A DNA stretch of 64,000 nt from assembly GCF_028641065.1 (NCBI RefSeq), contig NC_073387.1, forward strand, positions 22,692,001-22,756,000, written 5' to 3'. The position numbers and the translations under genes are program-made. Positions 23,549-48,578 of this stretch are shown here, one piece after another. Within the stretch, counting starts at the first letter, position 1, and every line of letters starts with the position of its first letter. The stretch comes from Leucoraja erinacea. Its lineage: Eukaryota. The notes under the pieces were generated by a model. That model searched no databases and was not told the origin of the DNA. It worked only from the letters and a program-made list of their open reading frames with translations.

Positions 23549-23720
23549 GGCGCCGCCGCTCTCGCCGGCTTCCCGGCGCTCGCTGGTGACGTTGCTGGTG
23601 ACGCCCCTGGGCGCCTGGTGATGACGTTGTCCTGGCCTGGCGCCGCCGCCGCCGCCACAGCAGCGTCCCCCGCAGGCCAGGAGGACCTCAGCTCCCAAAC
23701 AATGAGGCTGACTGCTCATG
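23400..23720. promoter_or_regulatory. CpG island / TMCO6 promoter, possibly bidirectional with the kinesin-like gene
   Basis: GC- and CpG-rich unique sequence around the TMCO6 ATG; three TGACG (CRE half-site) motifs in 23586-23627. Confidence 0.65.
23467..23548 (-). CDS. TMCO6: TMCO6 exon 1 ([27 protein letters not shown])
   Basis: GGCGCC-ATG context in a CpG island, GTGAG donor, phase 1 joins exon 2. Confidence 0.85.
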
Positions 23721-26686: not shown

Positions 26687-26738
26687 ATGACAGAAGAGGC
26701 TGCAGTGCGAGTAGCAGTGGGAATCAAGCAGACGCCAG
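26687..26738 (+). CDS. Kinesin-like gene exon 1 (MTEEAAVRVAVGIKQTP)
   Basis: ctttag acceptor directly before ATG (implies an upstream UTR exon); resembles kinesin beta-1 VRVAVRIRP; GTGAG donor. Confidence 0.75.
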
Positions 26739-29700
26739 GTGAGGACTATGAGATGGACCCTTCCCTTCTTACAAGCCAGCTCACACTGTGCCGTGTGTTT
26801 CGATGTTATCATATCTGTGTGTGTGTATCTGTGTTAGTGTATCTGTAAGTGTGTGTCTGTGTGTTTAGTTTGGCTATACTGTGTGGAAATAGGCCCTTCA
26901 GCCCACCGAGTCCATGCCGACCAGCGATCACCCCTCACACTAGCACTATCCTACAAGAGCGGAACTCGCTATCAAAACATGGAGGGGACGGGGGACACAA
27001 TTTTTTGGCGGCCACGCGCATGCACACACTCACACACACGCGAGGCTTCAGAGGCTCAATCCAGCGCTAAAAACTGAGATTTTAAAATCCGGATCACAAA
27101 AACTTGGGGGGGATGTCCCCCACCTCTCAAAACATGGGGGGGGCGTGTCCCCTCTGGCCCCCCCGGGTTTTCCGCCCCTGCTATCCTGCACACTGGGGAC
27201 AATTTACAGAAACCAATTAACCTATAAATCCACATGTCTTTGGAATGGGGGAGGACACAGGAGCACCCGGGGGAAAATCCCACACAGTCACAGGGAGAAC
27301 GTACAAAGTCCACACACACAGCACCCGTAGTCAGGATGACAGGATCGATCCCTGATCTCTGGCGCTGTGAGGCAACAAATATACCGCTGCGCCTATGTGT
27401 GTGCCTACACCTGCGTGTGTCTGTTTGTGTGGTTATGTCTGTGTCTGTGTGTGTCTGTATCCATGTGTGTAGAAATCTCTCTGTCTGTGTGTGTGTTTGT
27501 ATGTGTAGAGGCCTGTACACCTGTACGTCTTTGGGTTGTGGGAGGAAACCCACGCAGTACAAACCTCACACAGACAGCACCAGGATTGAGGATCAAGATC
27601 AACTTCATCAAGTTCACCACCAATTTCTATCCTGCACTCAAATTCACTTGGACTCCGACCCATCCCTCCCCTTTCTTGATCTCACAGTCTCCATCACAGA
27701 CAATCGACTGACATCTATTACAAACCCACTGACTCCCACAACTATCTCTACAACAGTTCTTCCCACCCTGTTTCCTGCAAAGACTCTATCCACTGCTACT
27801 AATTCCTCCATCTATGCCGCATCTGCGGCCAAGATGAGGTGTTCCATACCATATACATCCTAGGTGTCCTCATTCTTTAGGGAACGGCGTTCCCATCATA
27901 GATGAGACCCTCACTCGTGTCTCCTTGGTACCCGGCAGCTCCGCCCTTGCTCCCCCTCCCTCTAGTTGCAACAGAGACAGAGTTCCCCTAGTCCTTACCT
28001 TTCACCCCATCAGCCGTCGCATACAACCCATAATCCTCCGACATTTTTGCAACCTCCAACGGGATCCCACCTCTAGTCACATCTTCCCATTTCCACTGCA
28101 ATCCGCAGAGACCGTTCCCTCCGCAACTCCCTGGTTTCCCACCCAAACCACCCCCTCCCCAGGTACCATCCCATGCAACTGCAGAAGATGCAACACCTGT
28201 CCCAATACCTCCTCCCTCGGCTCTGTTCGAGGACCCCGACAGTTCTTTCAGGTTGGGCAGACATTCACTTGCACCTCCTCCAACCTCATCTACTGTATCT
28301 GTTGTTCAAGATGTGGACTCTTATACATCGGCGAGGCCAAATGTAGACTGAACTCCTTCGCTCAGCCTGCCCGAATCAACCTGATCTCCCGGTTGCTGAA
28401 CACTTTAATTCTCCTTCCCATTCTCACACTGACCTCTCTGTCCTGGGTCTCCTCCATTGTCAGAGTGAGGCTAAACGCAAATTAGAGGAACAGCATCTCA
28501 AATTTCACTTGGGCAGCTTGCAGCCCAGTGATATGAATATTGATTTCTCTAACTTCAAGTAACAAGATACAAGATACAATTTATTTGTCATTTTTTTATT
28601 TGTCATTTATTTGTCACAACCCAGCATTCCCTCTCTCTCCATCCCTCCCCCACCCAAGTTGCACCAGCTTCTTGGTTTCACTCAACAAACAGTTAACAAT
28701 GGCCTGTTACCCTTATCATCGTTACATTTTTCATTTATTGGTCAATATCCCACAACATCATTGTCTATATCTCTTGTTTCCCTTTCGCTGAGTCTGAAGA
28801 AGGGTCTCGACCCGAAACGTCACCCATTCCTTCACTCCAGAGATACTGCCTGTCACGCTGCACTACTGCTGCATTTTTTGTCTATCATCAGGATGGAACC
28901 CGGGTCTCTGGCGCTGTGAGGCAGCAACTCTACGTCCACGCCATCGTGCCGCTCGCTACGTTCACTGTGCGTTTGTACATGTGACAATAATGCGACCATG
29001 TGACCATTGACATAGGACCAGTGTAGATGGAGCATCTTGGTCAACGTGGACAAGTTGGGCCGAAGCTCGTGTTTCCATCCTCTATGACTCTATAACTAGC
29101 ACTGTAGTTGATTAGGTACAATCATTAACTAGGAGATTAGTTTAACTTGGCATCAGGTCCACCACAGGCATTGTGGGCTGAAGGGCCTGTTCCTCTACTG
29201 TACGGATCTATGTTCAAAATGATTGGAACACCACTTCCATTTGCCGCCAATGTTTTTTTCTGGATTTGCAGATGAGGAAGATGGAGGAATAACATCTGTG
29301 ACCGTCAAAGATTTACAAAGTTCAACTGTTTTGGAGCTGAATGCGGGAGGAAAGGTCAGTCAAAGAAAGTCCAGGAATGGACAAGATTTGTGTTTAAATC
29401 TTCGTGAAATGCTCAGTGTCCTTTGACTATTCCTAGATTGTCTTTCATTCATTTCATACGTTTAGTTTAGAGATAAAGCGTGGAAACAGGCGATGTGGTT
29501 TAGTTTGGTTTATTGTCACCTATATCGAGGTACAGTGAAAAGCTTTTTAATTGCGAGCTATGCAGCCAGCAACAAGATAATATATGATTATAATCAAGCT
29601 GTCCAAAGTGTACAGATACAGGACGATGGGAATAACGTTTAGTGAAAGATAAAGTCCAATTAAAGATAGGCCGAGGATCTCGAATGAGGTAGATGGGAGG

Positions 29701-32700
29701 TCATGACCACTCTCTCGTTGGTTCAGTTGTCAGTTGACAGCTGGAAGAAACCGTCCTTGAATCTGGAGGACGACAAAAATGATGGAGAAACGCAGCGGGT
29801 GTGGCAGCATCTATGGAGCGAAGGAATAGGTGACGTTTCGGGTCGAGACCCTTCCTCAGGCTGATGTGGGGGTGGGGGGACGGGAAGAAGCAAGGAAGAG
29901 GCGGAGAAAGCAAGGACTACCTGAACATTGACTTCCCCAATTTCAGGTAGTCCTTGCTTTCTCCCTCCTTCCCGTCACCTTCCCAGCTCTCCCACAGCCC
30001 ACTGTCTCCGCCTCTTCCTTTCTTCTTCCCTCCCCCCTCCCCCACCCCCACATCAGTCTGAAGAAGGGTCTCAACCTGAAACGTCACATATTCCTTTACT
30101 CCATAGATGCTGCCTCACCCGCTGAGTTTCTCCAGCATTTTTGTCTACATTCGATTTTTCCAGCATCTGCAGTTCTTTCTTAAACATTGAATCTGGAGTC
30201 GTCCGTTCTCACATTTCTGTACCTCTTGCCTGATGGGAGAGGGGAGAAGAGGGAGTGACAGGGGTGAGATTGGTCCTTGATAATGCTGGTGGCCTTGCTG
30301 AGGCAGGGTGATGTATAGATGGAGTCAATAGAAGGGAGGTTGGTTTGTGTGATGGTCTGGACTGCGTCCACAACTCTCTGCGATATATCGCAGTCTTGGA
30401 TGGAGCTGTTCCCAAACCATACTGTGTAGCATCCTGATAAAATGCTTCCTACCTGTAGAGGTTGGTGAGAGTTGGTGGGGACATGCCGAACGTCCAAAGC
30501 CTTCTAAGTAAATAGAGGCATTGTTGTGCTTTCTAGGCCTTGGACCCAGTCAGTAAATTCTGGGCTGTTGTCACCACGGCAGGAGTCTGGGGTATGTCTG
30601 CCCCACCAAACTTGCCAGTGAGTAGTGAAAGCATTGAGCTTGTTGGAATGCCCAAGTGTCCACACTCACCACCTCCCCTCTCCACAGGACTACACTTACA
30701 CGTATGATTGCGTCTTCAAGCAGGATGGGAACCAGGTGAGGATTGTGGGATCGCACATCCTACTGAGACCGAGTGTGGATGGGTGATCGATCAACATGGA
30801 TTCAGTTGGCCGACGGGCAGCACAGTGGTGCAGCTGATAGAGTTACTGCCCCATGGCACCAGACACCTGGGTTTGCTCCTGCTCTCGGGTGCTCTCTGTG
30901 TGCAGTTTGCACGTTCTCCCTATAACTGCATGTGCATGCGTGTGTGTCTGTGTATCCCGTATGTTGCAAACCATACTTGGCTAATAAAGTATGATTATGA
31001 TCTGCATGTGTATCTGTGTGTGTCTGTGTCTGCCTGTGTCCGTGTATGTGTGTATATATATATGTGCGTGTGAGTGCATTCAATTATATGTGTGAAAAAT
31101 ATAAAAGTACTCCAGCACATTGTGCCTCTCCTAGCTTTCTATCCTCCCCCCACCTCCCCCACCTCCCAACCATTAACAGTCTGAAGAAGGGGCCTAACCT
31201 GAAATGAAGCAGTGGGTGGAACTGTGGTGCAGCATTAGAGTTGCTGCCGTACAGTGCCAGAGACCCGAGTTTGATCCTGACTACTTGTTCTGTCTGTGCA
31301 CAATTTGTACGTTCTCCCTGTGACCAGATTAGTTTTCTCTGGGTGCTCTGCTTTCCTCCCACACTCTGAAGATGTACTGGTTTGTAAGTTAATTGGCTTC
31401 TGTAAATTGTCCCTAGTGTGTGTAGGATAGTGCTGGTGCTTGTGATTGCTGGTTGCTGTGGATTGGGTGGGCCAAAGGGCCTGTTTCTATGCCATATAGC
31501 TAAAGTCTAAAGTCGCCAATCCAAGTTTTCCAGCGATGCTGCCTGACCCACAAAGTTACTCCAGCACTGTGTCCTTTTATGTAAACCAGCATCTGCAGTT
31601 CCAGTTTCAACCTTTATATGCGTGCATGTGTCTGTATGTGCGCGCGTGCGTGCATGTGTCTATGTGTGCATGTGTCTGTGTACATGTGTGTGTGCATGCA
31701 TGTGTCTATGTGTGCGCGTGCGGGCGGGCATGTGTCTGTGTGGGTGCATGCACGTGTATGGGCACGTGTGCGCGTGCAGTGTGTGTGTGTGTGCCTGTGC
31801 TTACTCCACACGGCTGACAAGAGCACATGATGCTCTCATGATGCTTATTTTACTGGCATTAGGATGGAGTGTACACAGCGCTGGTGAAGCCTATGTTGTC
31901 CAGAGTGATGCGGGGGTTCAACGTGTCGCTGGTTGTGTCGGGTACACACGCATCTGGCAAGAGAATGCTGCTGGAGGGGGAGCGGAGAGAGGACGGCATT
32001 GTGTACAAGGTAAGGACCCCACATCTGGGGCACAGCATGGTAATGATGCCACCTGTAATGTGCCACCAAACCTGACCCCAAGCGCAGTGTTACACTGTCG
32101 GCGGTCCATGTTACATTTTGCCCAACTCGCTTTCTTTCCATGAGTGTTAAAGAACCAGTGAGACAGGAACGTAAAAGGAAAAAACCTTTTACTGTTTAAA
32201 ACCTAACACCCTAACCTGTGGTTATTAGTGATAATTCTAATTACAGTCTAGTTGGTGTAGGTTATTGTCATGTGTACCCAAGTACAGTGAAAAGCTTTTG
32301 TTGCATACCAACCAGTCAGTGGAAAGACTGTACATAATTGCAATCAAACCATGCACAGTGTACAGATACATGATAAAGGGAATGACATTTATTGCAAGGT
32401 AAAGTCCGATTAAAATAGTCTGAGGTAGATAGTAGCTCAGGACTGCTCTCTAATTGGTGATAGGATGGTTCAGTTGCCTGATAACTGGTGACAAAGGGAA
32501 AAACCTTACGATCAAAACTCTATCAACCTACGCTGTGGTTATGGGCCATAACTCCTATTACAGTTTATTTTAGAGATACAGTGTGGAAACAGGGCCTTTG
32601 GCCCATCAAGTCCGCACCGACTAGTGATCGCCCCGTATCCTACGCATTAGGGACAATTCTGCAATTTACAAAGCCAATTATCCTACATACCCGCACGTCT

Positions 32701-35700
32701 TTTGGAATGTGGGAAGAATCCGGAGCACCCGGAGGAAACCCACGCGGTTACTAGGAGATTGTACAAACCCTGTACACTCAGCATCTTTAGTCAGGAATGG
32801 CCCCGAGCGTCTGGTGCTGCAAGGTTGCAACTGTGCTGCTGTGCCACCCTGGTTCTAATTAAAGTATAGTTTAGTTTTGAAATACAGCATGGAAACAGGC
32901 CCTTCGGCCCACCCTGTCCACGCTGGCCAGCAATGACCTGTTCACACTAGTTCTATTTTATCCCACTTTCTCGTCCACTTTCTATCACTTGGGCCAATTT
33001 ACAGCGGAACAATGAACCTACAAACCCGCACGCCTTTGGGATGTGGGATGAAACCAGAGTACCAGGACTAAGCCAGAGCACGTGGTCACAGGGAGGACAT
33101 GCAAAACCACGCATGTAGCAACAGAGGTCAGGAACAAACCAGGGTCTCAGACACTGAACTGTCCTCTCACCTAGAGAGCGGTCCTGCCCTATCATCTACC
33201 CCATTGAAGACCCTTGGACTGTCTTTAATTGATCTTTACTGGACTTTATCTTGCACAATGTTTAAGAAAGAACTGCAATTGCTAGAAAAATCGAATGTAG
33301 ACCAAAAATGCTGGAGAAATACAGCGGGTGAGGCAGCATCTATGAAGAGAAGGAATAGGCGACATTTCGGGTCAAGACTCTTCTTCAGACTGATGTTGGG
33401 GTGGGGGGGCAGGAAAAAGAAAGGAAGAGGCGGAGACAGTAGGCTTTGTGGGACAGCTGGGAAGGAGAAACGTTATTCCTTTATCCTGTATCTGTACACT
33501 GGATTGTAATCCTGTACAGTCTTTTTGCTGACTGGTTAGTACGCAACAAAAAGCTTTTCACTTACCTCGGTGGACGTTACATTAAACTAAACTAAAACAT
33601 GAATAAACTCCTAATTTTTAATAAAAACCCCAATAACCCTTTATTCTCTGCAGATGTTGAAGGACTTGTTCACAGAGCTAAAATCGGAGAAAAATGGTCG
33701 TAAACAGCTCATCACACTCTCCGATATTCAGGTGAAGTGATTTGGATTTCAGTAAAATCCGACTAATTTATTCACTGGCAAAACACAATCCTAACCAATC
33801 CCCAAGAGTATGGTAGTATATTAGACTGTGAGCCACCGTGAAACGCTTTGTTTTGCATGCTATCCCAATACATCAGATAATACCACACATAAATACAATC
33901 AAGTCAAGCTCAAGTCTATAGGTAGAGCAAAGGGAAAGGTACAGAGTGCAGAATATAGTTCTCAGCATTGTTGAGAATATAATTCTCAGCATCAGTTCCA
34001 GAGACAAAGTCTAATGTCTGCAGCACGAGAGTCCCGGGGTTCGATCCTGACTATGGTTGCTGTCTGTATGGAATTTGTACGTTCTCCCTGTGACCACGTG
34101 GATTTTCCCTGAGTGCTCTGGTTTCTTCCCACACTCCTTGAACGTGCAGGTTTGTAGGTTAATTGGCTTCTGTAAATTGTCCCTAGTGTGTAGGATAGTG
34201 CTGGTGTGCGGGGAGATGGCTTTTTGGCGCTGACTTGGTGAGCGGAAGGGCCTGTTTCCGCGCTGTATCTCTAAACTAAACTAAAAAAAGTCAACCAAAA
34301 CTGCCTAAAATTGTAGAATTTGATGAAAATTAGTTGATTTTCAACAAGGCCACCAATTCACCAGTTTATGATTCTTCAGTTTCACCACGACGGTTCTACT
34401 GTGGATCTGCTGAACCCACATGGCAGGGAGATACAGTCCCTGCAACACTCGCTCCTGGGGCCGTAAGTGGGATCTCCCTGTGCATCAGACTGTTGTATGT
34501 GTGCTGGGTGACTTCCATTGGAGGTCTTGTTTGTGACTCTGTGTATGTCGGAGAGACATTGGCATGCCTTGTATGTCATGCATGTTACACTCTGCATGGC
34601 TGGAGAGTGCATCTGTGTTGTGTGTTTAAACGTCATCGTGAGTGTCTGGGATCTGGGTTCTGGCACCCACCCCTCTCTTTGTATAAAACTTGCCCTGTAC
34701 ATCTCCTTTAAGTCTCAAGATGATGCACAATAGAACATGTTAACTGTGAACATGGTGGGCCGAAGGGCCTATTTTCACACTATATCTCTAAAACTAAACT
34801 AAATCTAAACTTAGACTGAAGAAGTGTCCAGACCCAAAATGTCATCTATCCATGTTCTCCAGAGATACTGCTTGACCCTATGAGTTACTTCAGAATGTTG
34901 TGTCTATCGCTGGTATAAACCAGCATCTGCAGTTCATTTTTATTGCATCTCCTTTAAACTTCGCCCCACCCACCTTAAAGCTATGCCCTCATGTCTTTGA
35001 TATTTCCACCCATGGAAAAAGGTTCAGGCTGTCTCCCTTATCTATGCTTCTCATAATTTTATATACTTCTATCACCCTTCAATATCCTGAACTTTTTTCC
35101 TCATTATTATATTGATATTTATATTCATATAAATTGTATATATTTTATATTTATATTTTATATAAATATATATTTATACTATATTATGTTTACATTTATT
35201 ATATTAATAGATACATATATAAACATATGTACATGCATATATGCGCACATACATACAAATAGAAACAAACCTACAGTAATAGTGCAAAAAGACAAAACCA
35301 ATGTCCACAAGTCTATGTAGTTCAGAGCTTATTTGGAGGTTGTATTGTTTAATAGCCTGATGGCTGTAGAGAAGAATCTGCCCCTGAACCTGGACATTAC
35401 AGTTTTCAGGCTCATCTATCTTACAGGGTCATGACAGAGCTGAGTGAGATAGTTGTATCTGGTTTTGAAGATGCGTGGAACTTGTACCATGACGGGACAA
35501 AGGCCCAGAAGCTCGGAGGAACACCCCTGGACAGGTAAGAGCTTTGTCTCTGTTGCTACTTAAATTCAACTGAATCACAACTGCGCAATCTACAATCAGA
35601 TCATTTTGCCTCCGAGAATGAACGCACTGCATTGGTATAAGGGGTGGTCATTGATACCATCAAGCCAAACTTAAGTACAATATGTAGAGCAAGGGAAGAT

Positions 35701-38452
35701 ACAGAGTGCAGAATATAGTTCTCAGCATTGTAGCGCATCAGTTCCATAGACAAATTTCAATGTGCGCAATAGGGTAGATGTGAATTGGACAGTGTCTTAG
35801 CTTATAGATGGACCTTTCAGAAGCCTTATAACAGAGGGGATGAAGCTGTTCCTGAGTCTGGTGGAAGCTAACTTTGCAGTATGGGAAGAGACTGTGTCCT
35901 CTGTGGAGATAAAACTGTATGAAGTATGGGATTCACTTTGCATAGAGGCATGCAGGATGGAAACAGACCCTTTGGCCCAACTTGCCCATGCTGACCAAGA
36001 TGACCCATCTACTCTTGTCCCACCTGCCAGCGTTTGGCTCATATCCCCTCTAAGCATTTCCTATCCATGTACTTGTCCAAGTGACTTTTGTTATAGTACC
36101 TGCCTGGGCTGAGAGGGAAAGATAGAATGGCATGGTAGTTTTGATGGGCTGAATGGCCTAATTCTGCTGCAATGTCCTCTGACCTATTATGGTCATGCTG
36201 GTTTACCTTGGTACACATGACAATAATAAACTAAACTAAACAATCTAGAAGGCATGAGAATAGGATTGAGAGGGAAAGATAGATCAGCCGTGATTGAATG
36301 GTGGAAGGGACTCGATGAGCCGAATGGCCTAATTCTGCTTCTATGACTTAAGTAGGCTGCCAGGACTGAGCTGTAATAAATCTGGGGTACACAAAAATGC
36401 TGGAGAAACTCAGCGGGTGCAGCAGCATGTATGGAGCGAAGGAAATGGGTGACGTTTCGGGCCCAAACTCTTCTTCAGACTAATAAATATGGGGCAGGTT
36501 TCACTTGGATGGGCAAGTTGAGTTTCAGCTGAGGTGAAGTTGAAGTTTGTTTCTGATCCTTCGTGCATCAGGTGTAGCACAGTTATGCTGGAGTGGGAGG
36601 AGACCGCCTCCACCTGCGTTCGTTCTCTCCTTCGCATCTTCGCCCTCTCGTGCGGTCCACAGGGAGACGTGGAGAATGGGTAAGTCTGCAAACCATCTCG
36701 CTGACTGTCGCCCAAGCTTTGCCAACTTTCATATGTTTATGTGCAAGTCCTGAATGCTCACAACTCCGGTCATTCCTTTTTCTCCCATGCCCGTCCGACA
36801 GAAGGTACAGCAGCTTGAAAGCGTTCACCACCAGACTCGGGAACAACTTCTTCCACCTCTGTTATCAGGCTTCTCAACGGTCCTTCCATAAGCTTTTGTA
36901 CTGTGGATTCATCTCATTATATTTATTGTTTTGTTTAGTTTCATTTAGTTTGGTTTAGTTTACCCTGTGACCAAATGGGTTTCCTCCAAGCCGGGTGCTC
37001 CGGCTTTCTTGCATATCCCAAAGACGTGTGGGTTTTATAGGTTAAATTACCCTCTGTAGATATTGCCCCCTCGTGTGTACAGAGTGGCTGAGGAAGTGGG
37101 ATAACATAGCACAAGTGTGAGCGGGTGATCGATGTTCGGCATGGGTAATCGGTGGGGCCTGTTTCCATGCTGTATCTCTAAACTAAAAGTAAATGCTGAG
37201 AACTATATTCTGCACTCTGTATCTTCCCCATTTGCTCTAACTGTTGTACTTAAGTTTGACTTAATGGTATTTATGTATACTATTATCTGATTTGATTGGA
37301 AAGCATGCAAAACAAAGCTTTTCACTGTACCTCGATACACATGACCATAATAAACCTAAGCCTGCCCATAATTGGTTCTCAGTTGGATGTTTAGTTTGGG
37401 CTAGGTTTAAAGCATGAAAGATCATCATGGTTTTTGGGATGAAGCTATTCATTCTTGACTCTCGAGGCAGCTGGTAATGGAAGGTCCAGAATAGCTGGAA
37501 AACTGAAGTACCACTGCCTGATTTCCATCATCACCTCACAGTCTCTGGGTCACCTTTCCCCTCTCCACTTAAACCTATGCCTTCTGGTTTTTGATTCCTT
37601 ATAAGAGTCACAGAGTCATACAGAAACAGGCCCTTCAGCCCAAGTTGCCCATGCAGAACAAGATGCTCACCTTTGACCCATATCCCTCCAAACCTTTCCT
37701 ATCCATGTACGTCCAAATGTATTTTACATATCTGCCTCAAATACCTCCACTGGCAGCTCGTTCCATATTCCCACGACGCTCTGTGTGAAAAGGTTGCCCT
37801 TCAGATTTCTATTAAATCTTTCCCCTCTCTCCTTAAACCTATATCCTCTGGTTCTTGATTCCCCTATCCTGAATGAAGGTTTGTGCATTCACCGTACCTA
37901 TTCCCCTCATGATCTTCTACACCTCTATAAGATCACCTCTCATCAATTCTGCGTTCCAAGGAATAAAGTCCTCGCTTGCTCAACGTCTTCCTGTAGCTCA
38001 GACCTTTGAGTCCTGGCAACATCCTTGTAAATCTTCCCTGCATTCTTTCCAGCTTAATAACACGATCCACCATCAATTTTCCGGCCACTGCTGCTCCGGC
38101 ACTTCCATTAATCCGGACAAAATTACGAGAGCGCACCTGAATTCCCCCCGGAAGTCCCCCTGAAAATGCAGCACCTAGGCCTGGTGAGGCGACCGATATC
38201 GACCTCATCGGGACTTCTGCGGCCGATCGGCGGGTTGAATTTGTCCCCTGTGGCCGGGGCTCTGGAACTCCAGGATGGCTGGAGCCGGCGGATCCGTTCC
38301 CACAGCCGACTTCTTGGTCCGGCAAAGCCGATAATTTAGAAAGGCTCTGGAATGAAGGGTGCCGGAAAATTGGTGGTGGATGTGTTCTCCAAGTGTGGCC
38401 TTGCCAGCGTCTTGTACAGCTGTAGCATTAAAAATGTGAACACTGTGTGTGT

Positions 38453-38486
<34 letters not shown>

Positions 38487-41400
38487 AGAGTCACATCTCT
38501 GGTGGACTTGTTCAGTAAAGGACCGACACACAGACCCTTGGCGACCCTTCTGTGTCAGGCCCTCGAAGGAAACAGCTGTTCACTGTTGATCTGTTGTCTG
38601 ACACTTGCAGGTGAACTCATATGGGACTGGATGAGGCCATTCAACCCGTCACGTCGATCCCAGCCATCGAACGATTTAGACGACATGCGACACCGTGCTG
38701 CAGCTGGTAGAGCTGCTGCCTCAGCACCAGTTCAGTCCTGACCTCGGGTGCTGTCTGTGTGGAGTTTGCATGTTCTCCCTGTGACCGCGTGTTCCAGTTT
38801 CCTCCCACTTTCCAAAGACGTGCAGGTTTAATTGGCCTCGGTAAAATGTCCCCCAGTTTGTAGGGAGTGGATGAGAAAGTGGGATAGCAGAACTTTATTT
38901 TTTACGACACAGAACATAATGAATATATTCACTATAATGAATACTTTTGTAACTTTGCCAGCGCTCTATACGTGTGACTCTTTGCATACTTGTGTATTGT
39001 CTGCAAAACAAGGAATTTCACATGTGACAATAAGGTATCATCCATTCTAAGGGTTCAAAGGTTATTTTATTGGTCACATACACCATAGGTGTAGTGAAAT
39101 GCTTCTTGCCACTGCAGCACATAAACAAATAATACAGAAATAACAATAATAAAGAGATTTAAACATAAAAAACATCCCCCCACAATGGTTCCCATTATGA
39201 GGGAAGGCGCAGTGTCCAGCCCCCATCCCATGTCCACCCATTGTCGGGCCTATTCATAGAACAGTACAGCACAGGAACAGACCCTTCAGCCCACGATGTC
39301 CGTGTCAAACTCCTCTGCCTGCACGTGATCCATATCCATTCGTTCCTTGCATAGCCATGTGTTTGTGCCCGTGTGTTTGGCATTGATATTGTGGGCCAAA
39401 GGGCCTGCTCCTGTGCTGTACTGTTTCCATGTCATATCTTTAAGTATAGAAGTTGGGAGATCATGTTACAGATGTATAAGACGTCGGTGAGGCCACATTT
39501 AGAGCATTGTGTTCAGTTTTGGTCACCACCTAATAAGGAAGATGTAATCAAGCTGGAAAAGGTGCAGGGAAGATTCACGAGCATGTTGCCAGAACTCGAG
39601 GGCCTGAGCCATAGGGAAAGGTTGCCATAGGGCACAGGAGGAGCGATCTTATAGAGGAGTACAAGATCATGAGAGGAGATAGCGAATCTTTTACCCATAG
39701 TAGGGGAATCGTGTACAAGGATCATTTGAGAGGAAAAGATTTAATAGGGGGAGTGTCAATTTTACCCAGGGAGGTGGGTATGGGGAATCGTGAAGCAGGC
39801 ACAATCACAATGTTTAAGAGACATTTACCTGGATAGCACAGGTTTGGAGGGAGATGGGCCAAATGCAGGCAGGTGGGACTAGTGTAGCTGGGGCATGTGG
39901 TCAGTGTGGGTAGGTAGGGCCAAAGGGCCTGTTTCTATCCCAGTGGTCATACCCCCTCATTAGGTCTTTTCCCGTCTCACAGGTGACTGTGCTGTCCACT
40001 CTCCCCCCACCACGGCCACCCTAAAATCCTCTCTCTCTCTCTCTCCCGGACAGAGTCAAGGCCTGGAGAGACAGACTCCCCGCTGGCCCTGGCCCAGAGG
40101 GTGGTGGGACTGACCAACCGAGTCTCCCGTCTCAGCTGGGATCACCGGGAAACCGCACGGAATCTCCGCCGCAGCATCGGCGAGCTGCGGAAGACAGCGA
40201 GCCCGGCTGGTGAACTCAGCGGTCAGGATGCAGCAAAATTGGCGACTCTCGTGTGGGAATTACAGGCCAGTGCATGCAGCATGTGTGAATCCTTCCACTG
40301 GGAACTAACGTTCTTACACTAAACAATATTCCATTATCTGTATTCTTGCACTAAACATTATTCCCTTTATCCTGTATCTGTACACTGTGGATGACTTGAT
40401 TGGTGCTAATGTCGTCTTTCTACTGACTGGACAGCATGCAACAAACAAGCTTTTCACTGTATGTCGGTACACGTGACAATAATAAACAAAATTAAATGAA
40501 ACATTCCAGAGGGGTGCAGCAGGTGGAGCCGCTGCCTCACGGTGCTGGAGACCCTGGTTTGATCCTGACCTCGGGTGCTGTCTGTGTGTGGAGTTTGCAC
40601 GTTCTCCCTGTGGCCGAATGGGTTTCCTCCGGGTGCTCCGGTTTCTTCCCACATCAAAACGACGTGCAGGTTTATAGGTTAATTGGCCTAGGTAAATTGC
40701 CCCTAGTGTGTAGGGAGTGGATGTGAAATTGGGATAACATAGAACTATTGTGAACGGGTGATTGATAGTCGGCACGGACCCGGTGGGCTAAAGGACCTGC
40801 GTCCATTGGGTCTGGCAGCATCACTAGAGAACATGTATTGGTGACGTTTCGGGACTGAAGAAGGGTCCTGACCTGAAACTTTGCCGATCCATTTTCTCCA
40901 TGGATGCCGCCTGACCCGCTGAGTAACTCCAGCATTTTGTGCCTTTTTTTAAACCAAAAAACTTGGTGTCTTTTTCCTTGCGTCAACTACATTAAACAGA
41001 CCATGTTTGTTCAATAGATGGTGAAACAGCAACGGTGGGAGAAGAAGCTGGAGAGCTCCAATGCGATGCAGAGAGGAACGTAGGGAGTTCCTCAAGATGG
41101 TTGGTCCTTTTTCTCACTTGAGCGAGGGAGAGAGTTCAGTTCATTTATTTATTGTCATTCGATAAAAACATGCATCCACATGAATCATGAATGAAATTTG
41201 TACTCAGCAGTCCGAGCAGCGTACTAGTGTAGGCAGACAAAAAAGTCAAGACATCAATAAATTCTAAATGCTTCCACAAAAACCTTCATGAATAGTGAAA
41301 TAATTGTACTCAGCATGGTTCCGCAGCAGTCCATAGTACTAGTGTAGGCAGACATCCACTGAGGTAGTGAGTACAGTCAGGAGACATCAATAAATTCCTG

Positions 41401-44400
41401 ACCTGATTCTTTGCCTATATGGAAGAAAAACCAGCCTTCTCCCTGAGGGGATGGGGCAAAAAGTCAGTTGCCGGGTGGGTGGGGTCCACAATAGACTAAA
41501 TAATGAGTGAGCCTAATAATAAATAGTAAAAAGTAAAAAAGCAGCATGGTTAAAAGACAGCAGCATAATAATGTCCATAGCAGCAGCAGTAGCAGCAGAC
41601 AGTTCACTGAGGTAGTGAGGGGGTTCAGTCAGTGAGTGAGTGGGAGGTTTCCAAAAATAACAAGCTTTTATTACATATTCACATTTTCAAAGCACTGCAT
41701 TAATCAAAACTGCGGTTTGCAAACCTCAGAGACAGATGGCTGAAGAAGTAGGGTCCTGATGGTGTATACAAATTGGGAACCTGTCCATAGAATTTCTGCA
41801 GGAGTAGGATGCCGCTCAATATGATCATGGCTGATCATCCAACTCAGTATCCCGTAGAAGCCACTGGCTTTAACTGGCCTCAACTACCCCTTGTTGTCCT
41901 GGCCTTTATGCTGCGCAGCCTTCTCCCTAAGTCCGAATCTCACTGCCCTATGCGACCAACAGTCTGTAACGTTAACTCAGGATTCTTCAGGCCTGAGGGG
42001 GGGCAAAAAGTCCAGTTCACGGTGGGTGGGGTCCTTCATGATGTTTGAGGCTAACTGTTCTTGCACCTGCTGATGTAAATGTCCTGGACACAAGGAGGAA
42101 GGGAGGCAGCTTTTTAATGGGACTGACTCAGAGCATATGAAATGAGATTGAGGGAGCACTTTAAAAACTAGAGTGTTGAATGTTGAAATATGCAGTGTGT
42201 CTGTGAAATGCGTGTGCTGGTTGATTGTGAGAGATGCGTGGGGGGGGGGGGGGGGGGCAGAGAAAGTGCTTTGATTGAATTGAGAGATCCCAACATTGAG
42301 ATGAGCAGAGAGAGAACATAGAGACTGGGAGAGCGTCGAGCTGGTTCACACAAGAGGAAAAAGTGCTGAGAGTGGGTCAGTGTGACCCACTGAGGGACCA
42401 CTCCAGCATCTTTCTGTGGTACAACTTTCTGTGGGATTCTTGCTTGCTGCAGCTTAACAGGTCAGTAAACGCAAGAACACACGCATGGATAATACATTCC
42501 TTCTTCTGGCTTCCCGATTCCTATCTGTCCTTATCTCATACATTTTGTAGTCTCATCTCTGGACTTTGTCCAACCATCTGGCCATCAAACCCCCCCACAC
42601 CCCCCCCCCTCCCCCCCTACTCCCATCTGCATCCACCCATCACTGGCAAGGCTTTGTCCCACCCACTCCCAGCTTTCTCTCCCCCTCGCCCACCATGTCC
42701 CAACCCAAAACATCATCAATCCACATTCTCCAGAGATGCTGCCTGGCCCGCTGAGTTACTCCAGTACTTTGCGTCTTTTTCCCCCTGTAAAACAGCATCT
42801 GCAGTTCTTTGTGCCACTCTCGGTTTCCAATTGAGTTTGGTGTCTATGCTGCCGGCTACAGACAAAGCCACAGCCTGTCCCATTCCCAACAGGGTTTACT
42901 GGAGCAAGTCCAAGAACCGGAAGGTATCCCATCGGAAGTTGAGCATTGCTCCACACAGTCATTCCCAGCGCTCCTACAGGAATACAGTCGGAAAAAGGAC
43001 CAAATCAGGCGGATTGAGGACAAGCTGAAGGAACGCCTTTTGGAGTATCTGAAGGGTGAGGAAATGCTTCAAAAAGCGCAGGGACCTCATTGAAACTTTC
43101 CAAATAATGAAAGACCTGGATAGAGTGTATGTGGAGAGGATGTTTCCGCCAGTGGGAGAGTCTATGACCAGGGGGCACAGCCTCAGAATAAAAGGTTGTA
43201 CCTTTAAAAAGGTGGAGGGTGGCACAGCGGTAGAGTTGCTGCCTCACGGCGGCAGAAACCTGGGTTCCATCCTGACTACAGATGCTGTCTGTATGGAGTT
43301 TGTATGTTCTCTCTTGACCACATGGGTTTTCTCTGGGTGTTTCAGTTTTCTCCCACACTACAAAGATGCACAGGTTTATAGGTTTGGCTTTGGTAAAATT
43401 GGAATTGCCCCTAGTGTATAGGATAGTACGGGGGTGACCGATGGTCGGCTCGGACAGGGTGGGCTCCATAGCTGAGCCACGGTGCCACTCAAAGATTATC
43501 TATAATTGGAGAATTCAACGTTCATACCATTGCTGTCTTGCTGATTAAAGCACGGACTCACTTTCTCAGCGCGTCAAGCATCAGGCCCCGGTTCTAACAT
43601 AACGTGCCATCAAAATCTGTTTATGTTCTTCCTGTGGAAACAGCCGGCAGTGCGGAGGCGAAGGACGGGCCTTCTCAGCCACATCCAGGGGTTACGAAAG
43701 AGGCTGCGGGTGGAGATGGGCAGCCGAGAGAACATCAGGCAGCAGCTGCAGGCCTTGGAGACAGCAGCTGAACTCATCCAGGTATGTGCGACTCCCTGTC
43801 CCACCGTCTGTGGTCTTGGAATGACAAACATCATGTCCGGCACAGACATTGTGGGCCGAAGGGCCTGTCCTTGTGCTGCACTGTTCCATGCTCCAAGTGT
43901 AAGTTTAGTTTAAAGATGGAGCATGGAAACAGGTCCACTGAGTTCTCGCCGACCAGCGATCACCCTGTATATTAACACCATGCTATACACTGGGAACAAT
44001 TTACAAGTTTACTGAAACCAAATTAACCTAGAAACCTGTACATCTTTGGGATGTGGGAGGAAACCTGAGCATTCAGAGAAAACTTACACGGTCAAGGAGA
44101 GAACGTGCAAACTCCATACAGGCAGCACCTGAGGTCAGGATCGAACCCGGTCTCTGGCACTGTGAGGCAGCAACTCTACCGCTGCGCCACTGTATTAGTT
44201 TAGAGATACAGCATGGACACAGACCTTTCGACCCACGAGTCCACTCTGACCATCGATCACGGGTTCACACTAGTTCTGTGTTATCCCACTTTCCCATCCA
44301 CTCCCTGCACACTCGGGACAATTTACAGAAGCCAATTAACGTACAGACCCGTGCGTCATTGGAGTGTGGGAGGAACCGGATCAAAGGACAAAGGACATTT

Positions 44401-47400
44401 ATTGTCACATACACCAATTGGTGCAGTGAAATTTGAGTTACCATGCAGCTCACAAATAAGATGAACACAACACTATAGAATTTAACGTAAAACATCCCCC
44501 ACAGCAGAATCAACATTTCCCACTGTGAGGAAAGGCAATAAAGTTCAGTCATCTCCTCCTCATGTTCGCCTTAGATTTACAAGGATGTTGCCAGGACTAG
44601 AGGGTGTGAGCTATAGGGAGAGGTTGAGTAGGCTGGGTCTCTATTCCATGGAGCGAAGGAGGATGAGGGGAGATCTTGTAGATGTATTCAAAATCATGAG
44701 AGGAATAGAGCGGGTAGATGCACAGAGTCTTTTTGCCAGAGATGGGAAATCGAGGACCAGAAAACATAGGTTCAAGGTGAAGGGGAAAAGATTTAATAGG
44801 AATCCGAGGGGTAACTTTTTCACACAAAGGGTGGTAGGTATATGGAGCAAGCTGCCAGAGGAGGTAGTCGAGGCTGGGTCTATCCCATCATTTAAGAAAC
44901 AGTTGGACAGGTACATGGATAGGACAGGTTTGGAGGGTGAATGACCAAGTGCAGGCAAGTGGGACTACGGTAGCTGGGACATTGTTGGCCTGTGTGGGCG
45001 TGTTGAGCCGAAGGATCTGTTTCCACACACTATGACTCTACCTGGTCACAGGGAGAACGCACAAACTCCATACAGACAGCACCCGTAGTCAGGATTGAAC
45101 CCGGGTCTCTGGCATTGTAAGGCAGCAACTCTACTGCTGGACCAAACCTGCCCTAATTCTGCACTAATTTTGTTTCCATCACCCAGCAGAGCTGTGCCCC
45201 ATTACAATCAGACCTTGATGTAGTGTACACCACAGCAGTGGAGAAGAGGTCAAGAATGGCCAAAGGGAACGCTGCCCTGGTGCAGAGCGAACTTGAGAGG
45301 ATGGAGCAGGATCTGGAACTTCAACAAGTAGGAATTCCCTCAACTCTTCTATGTTTAGTTTAGTTCAGTTTACTGTCACGTGTACCGTGGTACAGGGAAA
45401 AGCTGTGCCCAATCCAGTCATCGGAAATACTATACATGATGGCAATCAAGCCGTCCACTTTGTACATACGCAGGATAAAGGGAATAATGTGTAGTGCAAG
45501 AAAAAGTCCGTTTAAAGATAATCCAAGGGTCTCCCATGAGGTAGATAGGAGGTGAGGTCCGCTCTCTAGTTGGTGAGAGGATGGCTTAGTTGTCTGATAA
45601 CAGCTGGGAAGAAACTGCTCCTGAATCTAGAGGTGTGCATTTTCACATTTCCGGCCGCAGCCTCGTGGATAAAGCCCGGGTCGGGCGAAGTGGCCGTTGG
45701 AGCTCGCGGCTGGGGCGCGTGCCGGCACCCACGGAGGCATGAAGTGGGGCGTCGACAGCGGTGGGGCCTCAGTGGCGGCAGCAGTGAAGCCTCGTGACGA
45801 TGGTGCCTCAGCGGTGGTGGGTCGACCCACGGTTGACCGTCTGTGAGAACGTGGAGGACCACCGTGACGGGGGGAGATGAAGAACAATGGAGGCCCGGCG
45901 TGGTGGGATCGCCGTGAAGGTGGAGGGGGGTTGAATAATGAACAGTGAGGGGTAAGGGTGGCAAAGGACAATGGAGACCTGGCGTGGGGGAATTGTTGGG
46001 GGTTGAGGCAAAAGGAGGAGCCGGTGTGTTGTAACTTTGTCAGCGCTGTAGGTGGCTGCTATTTGTTTACATTGTGTATGCAAGCTCACTGTGCCTAGTC
46101 ACATGTGACAATAAAGTATTCCTATTCCTACCTCTTTCCTGATGGGAGAGGTAAGATGAGGGAGTGTCCGGGGTGCGACTGGCCCTTGTTTATGCTGGCA
46201 GCATATTACGGATTGAATACAGGTGCAGTATATGTGGAGTTTGTATGTTCTTTCCGGTTTCCTCCCACACTTCAAAGACGTGTGGGCTTGTAGGTTAATT
46301 GGACAATTTGAGAACGTGCGAACTCCGTACAGACAGTACCCGTAGTCAGGATCGAACCCAGGTCTCTGGCTTTGTGAGGCAGCAACTCTACCGCTGTGCC
46401 GCCCGCCCTGTGGGGCACCTTGGTCAGCATGGGCAAATTGGGCCGAAGGAACTGTTTCTGTGCTGCTGCATGACTCTCTGAGGGGCAAGAGTATAATGTC
46501 TAAAGGCATGTGTGAACACTACAGCGTTTGACACTATTGAATGTGTAGGCACTAAGCTTGTGTGAAAAGCTTTTTGTAAATGTTTTTGTTTTAAATATAT
46601 TTATTAAATTCTGAACAAAGTTTATTCCTGGAAATTTTTTAAAAAAGCATGCAGGCCCTGTGTGGTCAGAGGAGGCTTCGAGGCTGAGGAGGGAGCGGGA
46701 TGTGATGGTTTTACAACTGGTGGCTCTGAGGAAGGAGAAGGAGGAGGCAGAGAGGGACCTGAAGGCAATGCATCGAAGCTACAAGGCTGAGTTGGCAGAT
46801 CAGAAACTCCAGGCTTTGCAGGTGAGTGTGGGGGAATGGTGGAGAGTTGTGGGTTGCGTGATCGGTTCAACTCCACAATCCAACAGTTCCCAAAGTATTC
46901 ACCCTACTGGGACAAGTTTAGTTCATAAGTCACAGGAGAAAATTTAGGCCATTCAGCCCATTCTGCTAATCAATCATGGCTGATCTATCTTTCCCTCTCA
47001 ACCCCATTCTCCTGCCTTCGCCCCATAACCACCGACACCCTTACTAATCAATGATCTGTCAATCTCCGCCTTAAAAATATCCAATGACATGGCCTCCACA
47101 GCCGTCTGTGGCAATGAATTCCACAGATTTACCACCTTCTGATTAAGAAAATTCCTCCTCATCTTTCTAAAGGTACATCCTCTTATTTTAAGGCCTCTGG
47201 TCCAGAACTCTCCCACTGGTGGAAGCATCCTCTCCATATCCATTCTAAATAGGCTTCACTATTCAGTGATGAAAGATACAGCATGGAAACAGGCCCTTTG
47301 GCTTACCGATCGTCCCGCATGCTAGCACTATCCGACACACTAGGAACAATTTACACAAGTCAATTAACCTACAAACCTGCATGTCTTTGGGATGTGGGAA

Positions 47401-48578
47401 GAAACTGAGGCACTTGGAGAAACCCCACGTGGTTACAGGGTAAACCCGAGTCTCTGGCGCTGCGTTAGGAACTCTACTGCTGCGCCACTGTGCAGCCTCG
47501 CAGAGGAAAAGTGCAAGGGCCGTAATGGGGTAGGTTGGAAGATCAGGACCACAGTCCAATTTATTGGAGGATCGTTCAGAAGCCTGATAACAGAGGGGAA
47601 GAAGTTGTTGCCCTCAGTTGGTCCATATCGATGAGTTGGGCTAAATCTAACTCGCAAGATATTTAGCAATTAGTATTTTGCAATGTTGGCAAGGAATCAT
47701 TCTTAACCCATCGCCTCAACAGATCCTCCGTGAGTTTGGGGAGGTGGCCAGGCAGCAGCAGAGCGCTCTGGAGGAGCGTTACCGTGGGCTTGTACGGGAG
47801 GCGGTCCAAGACACAGTGTACCTCGCAGATCAGAAGCAGCGACTGGAGCAGGGGAAGGAACGACTACAGGAGGGTAAAGTACTGGTGGAACTGAGGTCTG
47901 GAGTAAGGAGAGGTGGGGTCAGGTAAGGGTGACAGCTGGAGTGATGGATGGACTGATGTGTAGGAAGGAACTGCAGATGCTGGTTTACATCAAAGATGGA
48001 CACAAAATGTTGGAGTAACTCAGCGGATCAAGTTTGATAGAGAGCCTGATAAATTGATTGATGAATGCATGGATTGGTGGAAGGATACAGCATGGATACA
48101 GGCCCTTCGGCCCACCGTGTCCATGATGACCATTCATCCGATCACCAGGTCACACTAGTTTTAAGTTATCCCACTTTTGCATGCACTCCCTGCACACTAG
48201 GGGCAATTTACAGAGGGTCAATTAATCAGCACGGACACTAGGCTGAAGGGCCTGCTCCTGAGCTGCACTGTTTGCACTGAGAAGTACGGGTGTCAGGGGT
48301 TATGGGGAGAGTGGGGTTAAAAGGGATAGATCAGCCATGATTGAATGACGGAATAGACTTGATGGGCCGAATGGCCGAAATCTACTCCCATCACATGACC
48401 TTATGACTTTTCTATGTTCTACGTGCTGCTCGAACCTACAGCCACTTGTGTCTTTGCTTTCTTGACATCTGCAGTGGTTGCAAATCTACAAGAGCAGCTG
48501 ACTGCAACGAGACAGCAGGAGGAGATTCCTCGCCGGCAGCAAGAGATCGACAGGCCCACCTCCAGCAGCAGAGCTTGA
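26687..48578 (+). CDS. Divergent kinesin motor-like + coiled-coil protein, 17 coding exons, ~663 aa (two apparent 1-nt frameshifts)
   Basis: Exons 26687-26738, 29272-29354, 30688-30735, 31863-32009, 33654-33731, 34380-34462, 35427-35534, 36572-36679, 38489-38610, 40054-40265, 41018-41099, 42893-43055, 43644-43781, 45187-45327, 46648-46821, 47723-47873, 48475-48578. Kinesin landmarks occur in order (VRVAV, YTYDCVF, GFN...SGK, DLL, LATLLCQALEGNS, LALAQRV); phases agree except at exons 11 and 13. Confidence 0.82.
27590..28890 (+). mobile_element. Penelope-like retroelement, 3' fragment (RT end + GIY-YIG)
   Basis: LPFLDL, FTCTSSNLIYCICCSRCGLLYIGE motifs; frameshifted; boundaries approximate. Confidence 0.85.
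29272..29354 (+). CDS. Kinesin-like gene exon 2
   Basis: DEEDGGITSVTVKDLQSSTVLELNAGGK, ttgcag/GTCAGT, phase 1 to 0. Confidence 0.75.
30190..30540 (-). mobile_element. Rex1/Babar-like LINE 3' fragment
   Basis: [41 protein letters not shown]; related pieces near 7440-7590, 9300-9540, 51400-51650, 63020-63375. Confidence 0.7.
30688..30735 (+). CDS. Kinesin-like gene exon 3
   Basis: DYTYTYDCVFKQDGNQ (cf. FTFDxVF...Q), ccacag/GTGAG. Confidence 0.82.
31615..31800. repeat. Imperfect (TG/CG/CA)n alternating purine-pyrimidine tract
   Basis: Visible directly; similar tracts at 27390-27505 and 30925-31075. Confidence 0.85.
31863..32009 (+). CDS. Kinesin-like gene exon 4 (degenerate P-loop)
   Basis: DGVYTALVKPMLSRVMRGFNVSLVVSGTHASGKRMLLEGERREDGIVYK, GTAAG donor. 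Confidence 0.88.
33654..33731 (+). CDS. Kinesin-like gene exon 5
   Basis: MLKDLFTELKSEKNGRKQLITLSDIQ, ctgcag/GTGAAG. Confidence 0.82.
34380..34462 (+). CDS. Kinesin-like gene exon 6
   Basis: FHHDGSTVDLLNPHGREIQSLQHSLLGP, cttcag/GTAAGT. Confidence 0.82.
35427..35534 (+). CDS. Kinesin-like gene exon 7
   Basis: VMTELSEIVVSGFEDAWNLYHDGTKAQKLGGTPLDR, ttacag/GTAAG. Confidence 0.82.
36572..36679 (+). CDS. Kinesin-like gene exon 8 (switch I/II region, degenerate)
   Basis: CSTVMLEWEETASTCVRSLLRIFALSCGPQGDVENG, GTAAGT donor, phase 2 to 2. Confidence 0.72.
38066..38380. mobile_element. Same MITE family, opposite orientation, eroded ends
   Basis: TCCACCATCAATTTTCCGGC ... GCCGGAAAATTGGTGGTGGA; internal sequence is the reverse complement of 58650-58800. 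Confidence 0.72.
38489..38610 (+). CDS. Kinesin-like gene exon 9
   Basis: VTSLVDLFSKGPTHRPLATLLCQALEGNSCSLLICCLTLA (cf. [24 protein letters not shown]); (CT)n tract before the acceptor. Confidence 0.87.
40054..40265 (+). CDS. Kinesin-like gene exon 10 (helix 6, neck, start of coil; probable GC donor)
   Basis: ESRPGETDSPLALAQRVVGLTNRVSRLSWDHRETARNLRRSIGELRK...LVWELQ; donor CAG|GCCAGT. Confidence 0.75.
41018..41099 (+). CDS. Kinesin-like gene exon 11 (apparent frameshift)
   Basis: MVKQQRWEKKLESSNAMQ then EERREFLKM in a shifted frame; as assembled there is an in-frame TAG at 41081-41083. Confidence 0.65.
42893..43055 (+). CDS. Kinesin-like gene exon 12
   Basis: GLLEQVQEPEG...LLQEYSRKKDQIRRIEDKLKERLLEYLK, caacag/GTGAG. 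Confidence 0.8.
43644..43781 (+). CDS. Kinesin-like gene exon 13 (apparent extra base near 43667-43670)
   Basis: AGSAEAKDG then LLSHIQGLRKRLRVEMGSRENIRQQLQALETAAELIQ in the next frame; GTATG donor. Confidence 0.72.
44575..45040 (+). mobile_element. CR1-clade LINE 3' fragment
   Basis: [35 protein letters not shown]...FFTQRVV. Confidence 0.9.
45187..45327 (+). CDS. Kinesin-like gene exon 14
   Basis: QSCAPLQSDLDVVYTTAVEKRSRMAKGNAALVQSELERMEQDLELQQ; tandem CAGCAG acceptor. Confidence 0.78.
46648..46821 (+). CDS. Kinesin-like gene exon 15
   Basis: HAGPVWSEEASRLRRERDVMVLQLVALRKEKEEAERDLKAMHRSYKAELADQKLQALQ; GTGAGT donor; acceptor is weak (aaaaag) and chosen for phase. Confidence 0.78.
47723..47873 (+). 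CDS. Kinesin-like gene exon 16
   Basis: ILREFGEVARQQQSALEERYRGLVREAVQDTVYLADQKQRLEQGKERLQE, caacag/GTAAAG. Confidence 0.85.
48475..48578 (+). CDS. Kinesin-like gene exon 17 (terminal)
   Basis: VVANLQEQLTATRQQEEIPRRQQEIDRPTSSSRA-stop; AATAAA at 48711-48716. Confidence 0.72.

Follow-up and report, generated by a model that had tools for sequence, protein, structure and literature searches.

Does the skate Leucoraja erinacea possess a kinesin that can no longer turn over ATP and, if so, to which branch of the kinesins does it belong and what might such a protein do? The question was raised by the + strand of a 64,000-nucleotide stretch of contig NC_073387.1 (RefSeq assembly GCF_028641065.1, positions 22,692,001 to 22,756,000; hereafter, the window), in which a first-pass annotation had assembled a multi-exon gene for a kinesin-like protein with degenerate nucleotide motifs. 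The gene is a real, conserved and misnamed pseudo-kinesin from an unnamed kinesin branch. Its 17 exons, as annotated earlier, run from the ATG at 26687 to the TGA at 48576–48578. When exon 10 served as the query, a single protein among 342 candidates was retrieved, the Amblyraja radiata RefSeq entry P0001 (99% identity, E 6.6e-35), an open model of 676 aa named "chromosome-associated kinesin KIF4-like isoform X2." The gene is thus not missing from annotation, its A. radiata counterpart being predicted by RefSeq under a misleading KIF4-like name.

The window and the A. radiata protein were identical at 615 of 628 aa (97.9%), with 13 substitutions, and tblastn placed the protein onto exons 1–16 in order. 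Exon 17 was covered by proteins of Heterodontus, Stegostoma, and Mobula (tblastn) and by P0030. All 16 introns ended in AG; 15 began with GT and intron 10 with GC. The junction formed by this GC-AG intron (donor 40266–40267) was identical in the A. radiata protein. Residues 629–676 of P0001 read through the exon 16 donor into intron 16 and repeat sequence; this C-terminus matched several repeat copies in the window and, owing to the readthrough and a predicted local distance difference test (pLDDT) value <50, is probably a model artifact. Alternative acceptors at 39983 (a "long" exon 10) and 46655 (exon 15) were rejected because of stops in frame. The ATG of exon 1 directly follows an AG acceptor, and a candidate upstream exon lies at 24689–24739 (+), with an open frame containing LLVKE, which resembles the N-terminal ILVKE of a Scyliorhinus isoform; it is followed by a GT donor whose phase fits exon 1.

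The kinesin fold and the coiled-coil tail claimed earlier were both borne out. The A. radiata protein matched the Pfam Kinesin domain PF00225 with 82.6 bits (E 3.4e-23, cut-off 29.3), as did 31 of the 34 near-full-length family members (head plus neck or tail; 5 named, 29 unnamed) gathered in alignment A2. Of 15 exons searched singly, only exon 4 gave a kinesin hint in Pfam (E 7.4e-5, below the curated cut-off). The predicted structure of the A. radiata protein (pLDDT 81.2; predicted template modeling score 0.59) showed a full kinesin core with a 9-residue helix 4, three helices at 307–380 and long helices up to 639, the model being helical throughout from residue 307. Structure comparison gave Z scores of 31–35 to kinesin motors. 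The best match was KIF13B in its autoinhibited state (6a20; Foldseek E 2.7e-26, Z 35.0, root-mean-square deviation (rmsd) 3.4), in which model residues 3–377 aligned to residues 2–433 over 362 residues spanning the motor, neck coil, and coiled coil 1 (CC1), followed by full-length KLP-6 (7wrg; Z 33.8, rmsd 3.8, 360 aligned). Most other kinesins aligned to the motor alone (∼285–320 residues), and alignment extended far past the neck only with KIF13B, KLP-6, and the mouse central-apparatus structure 9ijj (rmsd 28).

The part beyond the motor begins in exon 10 (40054..40265), which encodes helix 6, the neck linker, the neck coil, and CC1a and ends at the GC donor; folded alone, this exon added nothing. 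CC1b, including W354 (41036–41038), lies in exon 11 (41018..41099). In the predicted model, the neck coil and CC1 fold back on the motor, a trait of kinesin-3, and W354, which is conserved in at least 90% of the 34 rows, aligns to W411 of KIF13B. In KLP-6, CC1a and CC1b are described as folding back to fasten the neck and motor, with W421 as a tested CC1b contact, in the available text of PMC9314371. KIF13B, KLP-6, and KIF1A, which are the best sequence and fold matches of the family, thus share with it the motor fold, the folded-back neck coil and CC1a/CC1b (in the model), and the W-E-K of CC1b. The family differs from kinesin-3 in its all-helical tail, in having no FHA domain after CC1 and no cargo domains (0/34 rows), and in that its vertebrate members have lost the catalytic and microtubule-binding motifs. 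Exon 12 (42893..43055) encodes a linker and the first stalk helix, exons 13 (43644..43781) and 14 (45187..45327) further stalk helix, and exons 15 (46648..46821) and 16 (47723..47873) the first and second halves of a family-specific tail coiled coil, the latter with the pattern E.RYR.L...A..D...L. Exon 17 (48475..48578) includes the stop codon, and its frame is backed by the shark and ray proteins and P0030. Tail residues 527–627 were predicted to form a parallel homodimer, with a score of 0.46 against 0.00 for the best of 3 controls, at least 52% of contacts agreeing between runs and pLDDT of at least 64; on calibration, the dimer mark was reached by 21/30 solved pairs and 0/23 single chains in microbes, 17/29 and 0/30 in eukaryotes, 7/16 pairs in animals, and 1/7 eukaryotic pairs without an older solved relative. 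The tail profile had no match with E <0.06 among solved structures.

The motor motifs were located on the exons and scored at aligned columns of 13 vertebrate-type rows, with 8 intact rows for comparison and with canonical motifs as defined in the available text of PMC5076506. Exon 1 (26687..26738) encodes β1 and, at 26720–26731, GIKQ in place of the adenine-binding RxRP, a loss overlooked previously; RxRP was absent from all 10 vertebrate-type rows covering that site. Exons 2 (29272..29354), 3 (30688..30735), and 5 (33654..33731) were delimited by tblastn and splice sites. Exon 4 (31863..32009) encodes helix 1, β3, the P-loop, which reads GTHASGKR (31941–31964), and helix 2a. Exon 6 (34380..34462) carries DLLNP and loop 8 (H..LG), within the best-conserved motor region, and exon 7 (35427..35534) helix 3 and the start of the switch I replacement, GTPLD (35518–35534), which is divided as GTPLD|RCS from exon 8 (36572..36679). 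The latter continues with RCS, β6, β7, and the switch II replacement ALSCGP (36642–36659). Exon 9 (38489..38610) comprises the short helix 4 (model residues 238–246), loop 12 without PYR, helix 5, and β8, with LATLLCQALEGNS at 38538. The three altered motifs named by the first-pass annotation are thus all present in the window, and the segment that it had called shortened, before LATLLCQALEGNS, measures 31 aa from switch II to helix 5, compared with 53–56 in intact relatives.

How far these losses extend beyond the skate was found to differ between motifs. Switch I (NxxSSR) was found in 0/13 vertebrate-type and 8/8 intact rows, the sole pattern match lying elsewhere in P0022; switch II (DxxGxE) was absent at the aligned column in all 13, two pattern matches lying elsewhere, and so were the switch II glutamate (0/13) and the PYR of loop 12 (0/13). 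The switch II-to-helix 5 segment spans 31–36 aa in vertebrate-type rows, against 53–56 in the 8 intact rows, loop 11/helix 4 being ∼20–25 residues shorter, and vertebrates have lost the basic positions that helix 5 carries in intact rows (SKLTR). In contrast, the P-loop (Gx4GK[ST]) was intact in 4/13 vertebrate-type rows, including Heterodontus and Stegostoma, the GTHASGKR form being shared by L. erinacea and A. radiata; its loss is therefore not family-wide. The proposal of catalytic motif loss accordingly holds across the vertebrate-type rows for switch I, the switch II glutamate, and loops 11 and 12, but not for the P-loop. Among vertebrates, the loop 11–loop 12 block had the lowest mean identity of the motor (0.31), and loop 8/helix 3 (0.45) and the tail helix (0.47) were best kept; some residues of loop 8 (H..LG) and of helix 6 (E, R) survive. 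P0032, an invertebrate-type relative, represents a halfway state, with intact P-loop, DLAGSE, and PYR, an altered switch I, and a segment of 43 aa; PYR is also retained in invertebrate-type P0036.

Conservation in other species, suggested as a check, was found. Among 8000 candidates scored, nine matched as named orthologues; those with open frames came from Heterodontus, Scyliorhinus, and Stegostoma (49–53% identity), Hyla sarda (29%), and Phyllopteryx (30–31%), and the Mobula orthologue (57%) is a model without the motor. The profile search listed 150 representatives. Besides A2, an alignment of 19 tail fragments (A3) was made, with other fragments and long canonical kinesins excluded. Of the A2 rows, 13 are vertebrate-type, 5 invertebrate-like, 8 fully intact, and the remaining 8 degenerate in another way; rows without a species name were labeled by their motifs and their place in the tree. 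In the motor-free tree, the branch that sets the vertebrate-type rows apart had a support of 100/100, the branch that sets these apart together with the invertebrate-like rows 95/97, and the branch to seven of the other degenerate rows 100/100, whereas intact rows were unresolved between the groups. Intact and degenerate groups lay on opposite sides of a branch supported at 96 in the Shimodaira–Hasegawa-like approximate likelihood ratio test (SH-aLRT) in the full-length tree, and at 77/86 in the motor-free tree. Held-out tail profiles, whose columns came from one joint alignment and are therefore not fully independent, recovered 12/13 vertebrate rows at 54–75 bits, 5/5 invertebrate-like rows at 66–85 bits, and 8/8 of the second degenerate group at 31–65 bits, shuffled sequences reaching at most 9.4. 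A tail-profile search for named distant members among 7999 candidates gave only two matches, both already in the family set. In the Atlas, all matches were kinesin clusters; the top one for P0001, with 51 members (Chordata), may be the cluster to which P0001 itself belongs. The second degenerate group (P0077, P0078, P0082, P0086, P0087, P0100, and P0141) has the same tail, has lost switch I and II, and retains a VPF-like loop 12; it possibly represents a separate loss of activity, a single loss in common with the animal group also being possible.

The taxa of relatives without species names were judged from tree position and by-eye matches to the supplement of the kinesin survey of Wickstead et al. 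2010 (PMC2867816). In the part of that supplement available, seven rows came closest to the family: Strpu_GLEAN3_11353, Capsp_221227, Lotgi_235687, Nemve_167011, Physo_158637, Physo_158263, and Auran_54329. By eye, the sea urchin, Capitella, Lottia, and Nematostella rows (S9) share the half-degenerate signature of P0032, i.e., its altered switch I and shortened loop 11, and the Phytophthora sojae row 158637 closely matches intact P0073. The relatives' rows, including Physo_158263 and Auran_54329, are listed in S3 as Kinesin-2 without a subfamily, and in the text available they receive neither name nor discussion; the vertebrate members are far more degenerate. Four other rows without a subfamily (Monbr_17662, Naegr_31023, Physo_120327, and Batde_05477) resemble ordinary kinesin-2. 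The survey is stated to have dropped 166 of 1624 heads for low scores (PMC2867816), a filter that would hide vertebrate members, although its scores are on a different scale from Pfam bits.

Whether the skate copy itself is functional depends on two frameshifts. At the splice sites of the orthologue, exons 11 (82 nt) and 13 (138 nt) each contain one extra base (∼41060 and ∼43661), so the consistent splice phases reported earlier do not hold, and the frame ends at codon 369 with the TAG at 41081–41083. Nor is a product of ∼663 aa encoded at orthologous sites; one such path exists, through three non-orthologous sites (donor 41079, acceptors 42868 and 43651), and it presumably gave rise to the earlier figure. 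When alternative GT/GC-AG sites were allowed, 1386 open 17-exon paths were obtained, none of which retained both halves of exon 11 (WEKK and EERREF). In exon 13, an AG at 43649–43650 would restore the frame, and skipping of exon 11 together with acceptor 43651 gives an open frame of 634 aa; shark-type P0010 lacks exactly exon 11.

The two frameshifts are probably assembly errors rather than a real loss. Doubling of a single A is a common long-read error, and each of the two extra bases repeats an A; nonsense codons are lacking, every splice site is intact, and only 13 of 628 residues differ from the open A. radiata model. Several observations weigh on the other side and are compatible with real decay: no frameshift was found in 3243 nt of other coding stretches of the window (each judged open from its own reading frame, with no orthologue for comparison, and with one TMCO6 exon not located), the branch leading to the skate exceeds in length those of four shark-type rows by a factor of 2.5 to 6 (0.59 vs. 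0.10–0.24 in the full-length tree and 0.54 vs. 0.12–0.20 in the motor-free tree), and the Mobula model and skate-like P0030 lack the motor. That this copy is a recent pseudogene or null allele in a family that is itself real, yielding a truncated product of 368 aa or none, is distinctly less probable, though it is the alternative that survives best. It would account directly for the two +1 frameshifts and the early stop, for their coincidence in this gene (hand arithmetic gives a chance of ∼0.15 that two random errors both fall here), for the long branch and the motor-less ray models, and for the missing P-loop Ser/Thr, which is present in two named sharks; yet the 97.9% identical A. radiata counterpart has an open model, nonsense and splice-site lesions are absent, both lesions are single A doublings, and the open 634-aa route omits the same exon as P0010.

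The family would best be explained, by a small balance of probability, as an old, unnamed kinesin branch between kinesin-2 and kinesin-3 that became a dimeric, non-motile scaffold in animals. The architecture of the branch would comprise a kinesin-3-type motor, a neck coil and CC1, no FHA domain, and ∼240 helical residues ending in a family-specific tail, with a motor that looks active in some protist-type relatives and a chemistry that would have been lost stepwise in animals. Judging from the motif losses, the vertebrate protein very probably keeps the fold without an ATP cycle. Structure prediction suggests, with somewhat better than even confidence, that the head keeps its neck coil and CC1 in the folded-back position of autoinhibited KIF13B and KLP-6, forming one rigid head–neck unit, and, with slightly more, that the tail joins two chains in a parallel coiled coil. 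Microtubule binding would be weak or nil because loop 11, helix 4, and loop 12 are eroded, and the protein could, at even odds, act as a two-headed spacer or adaptor presenting loop 8/helix 3 and the tail to partners. A structural scaffold rather than a motor is probable since shark, frog, and bony fish relatives share most of the losses. Of the roles proposed earlier, that of a microtubule tether is doubtful for vertebrates, as erosion is greatest in the elements chiefly responsible for microtubule binding. The named species with family members have flagellated or ciliated stages. Kinesin-2, under which the relatives' rows are filed, is reported in the available text to occur only in cilia-building organisms (PMC2867816), and from this distribution alone cells with motile cilia or flagella would tentatively be the most likely setting.

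Certain results tell against this interpretation. The top Z scores are tied within 1 (KIF15, 34.5), and the preference for KIF13B therefore depends on aligned length. Sharks retain GTxxSGKS and DLxG, so that nucleotide binding may persist there. Both trees lack an outgroup, and the full-length tree is from a quick search. The protist edge of the family is soft as judged from the sequences, because the tail signal is strong in just 3 of the 8 intact rows (50–65 bits), weak in 3 (13–24 bits), and absent in 2, among them P0073, the row matched to Phytophthora. X-box scans of the window gave 3 matches against 5.7 expected and 0 against 6.5 expected.

Two other roles for a non-catalytic head were considered, both improbable and to the same degree. 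In the first, the protein would be a partner subunit that heterodimerizes with an active kinesin-2 or kinesin-3 to tune or brake it, as Vik1/Cik1 do with Kar3. Like the skate protein, Vik1 and Cik1 have a motor-shaped, non-catalytic head on a coiled coil, and in Kar3 heterodimers such heads provide a foothold, according to the available text of PMC4338441. The neck coil and CC1 are retained in the skate family, and the split between intact and degenerate groups is as for an old paralogue pair. Vik1 and Cik1 are of the C-terminal kinesin-14 type and are obligate heterodimers, whereas the skate head is N-terminal and its tail passes as a homodimer in the model. A foothold also needs microtubule binding, for which the elements are eroded in vertebrates, and among the 34 rows the animal-type clade contained no intact member; these points count against a partner subunit even though its relatives are filed with Kinesin-2, a family with heterodimers, in the part of the survey available (PMC2867816).

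In the second, the protein would statically bind or cross-link microtubules, in the manner of KIF26A. KIF26A/B, Cos2, and VAB-8 resemble the family in having a kinesin fold without ATP turnover and a scaffold or regulator role, and KIF26A binds microtubules without ATP hydrolysis (PMC10585591, PMC2867816, in the text available). The partly retained loop 8 and helix 6, the PYR of P0032 and P0036, and the capacity of a two-headed dimer to bridge filaments would fit such a role. KIF26A and Cos2, however, still bind microtubules, and the vertebrate members of the skate family have eroded that surface, with PYR and the helix 5 basic residues gone and helix 4 reduced to 9 residues in the model. Smy1 is another non-motile kinesin-fold scaffold or regulator. 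All of these non-motile kinesins probably have another ancestry and architecture than the skate family, and KIF26, VAB-8, and Smy1 differ from it in length and tail. In addition, the folded-back NC-CC1a bundle of KLP-6 clashes with β-tubulin, as described in the available text of PMC9314371.

The vertebrate profile scored 107.5 bits to KIF1A, 106.3 to KIF13B, and 91.5 to KIF4; P0049 scored 349–385 to KIF1A, 348 to OSM-3, and 287 to KIF4; P0073 scored 273 to KIF4 against 348; and for P0032, KIF3B came first at 218, against 188.5 for KIF4. The top sequence matches were thus KIF1A/KIF13B, but KIF3B for P0032, with OSM-3 and KIF3B close to the kinesin-3 scores. The earlier statement that no named human KIF can be assigned also stands: among solved structures, none matched so as to assign the family. 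A paralogue of KIF4, the kinesin-4 chromokinesin, as the RefSeq and Atlas cluster names would have it, is most improbable, because KIF4 scores below the kinesin-3 heads, and below kinesin-2 where listed, in all four comparisons, the neck matches kinesin-3 NC-CC1, the names are all automatic, and the likeness is limited to a kinesin head and coiled coil. KIF4 is about twice as long as the skate protein and has a C-terminal Cys-rich region that the skate protein lacks.

The neighbors of the kinesin gene are a TMCO6-like gene, arranged head to head with it, and SLC35A4, arranged tail to tail. The former, which we take to be TMCO6 from synteny, occupies 1432–23549 (−), starting near 23549; its exons were placed at 20146–20258, 13798–13981, 12480–12584, 11461–11546, 7084–7200, 4616–4730, 2711–2879 (Arm repeat), and 1432–1526, and one exon between 13981 and 20146 was not found. 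A CpG-rich stretch (23440..23700) contains the start of this gene and is likely a shared head-to-head promoter region of both genes. TMCO6 introns also contain an assembly gap of 175 N at about 4895–5070 and a complete, young Tc1/mariner element at 15885–17508 (+), with 222-nt terminal inverted repeats that are 97% alike and an open transposase of 338 aa (16272–17288) with helix-turn-helix (HTH) and DDE domains. On the other side, the SLC35A4 open reading frame (ORF; 55566–56528, 320 aa) is preceded by two exons of its upstream-ORF microprotein (58952–59050 and 57530–57709, −; Pfam DUF4535, E 7e-11), so that the bicistronic layout, known from human, is present in the skate. In the human/anole gene table, as far as it is available, the same slot and orientation are occupied by CD14 and no kinesin is listed (PMC2764143); no CD14-like long ORF was found between the kinesin gene and SLC35A4 (48700–55500). 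Scans of the window for tRNA and Rfam families gave no match.

No description of the gene or family was found in the open-license full text of PubMed Central and bioRxiv; subscription papers and supplements (ciliary proteomes, Foxj1 targets) may carry orthologues under other identifiers. The only "pseudoKinesin" met with was a fungal group (PMC5076506, available text), and the Nematostella apical-organ paper names Kif9 and Kif16 only in the part available (PMC4300403). A salmon "KIF4-like" hypoxia marker was rejected as a family member; in the available text its behavior parallels that of cell-division genes (PMC7466982), and it probably represents KIF4 itself. Non-catalytic kinesins are already known as a kind, and no new principle is involved. 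Kinesin catalogues rest on mammals and model organisms and discard low-scoring heads, as the available part of PMC2867816 illustrates, and a conserved vertebrate kinesin family can therefore go unseen. Fish, shark, and frog entries labeled "KIF4-like" may refer to a different gene. Intact, half-degenerate, and dead versions of one architecture offer a test bed for the motifs of hydrolysis, microtubule binding, and neck autoinhibition, and a zebrafish or Xenopus knockout would be feasible if orthologues are confirmed there. A wider, speculative scenario, unlikely to hold in full, is that of an overlooked eukaryote-wide family, a working motor in flagellated protists, that became a dimeric, motor-shaped structural protein in animals and kept only the kinesin-3 autoinhibition latch and the tail. 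Its losses would have come in the order switch I/loop 11, then switch II/loop 12, and last the P-loop, and in fishes and amphibians the protein would act in motile cilia, in flagella, or at basal bodies, having been lost towards mammals and hidden under the KIF4 name. If true, the family would provide a living intermediate series from motor to pseudoenzyme and, perhaps, an example of a kinesin that has given up contact with microtubules.

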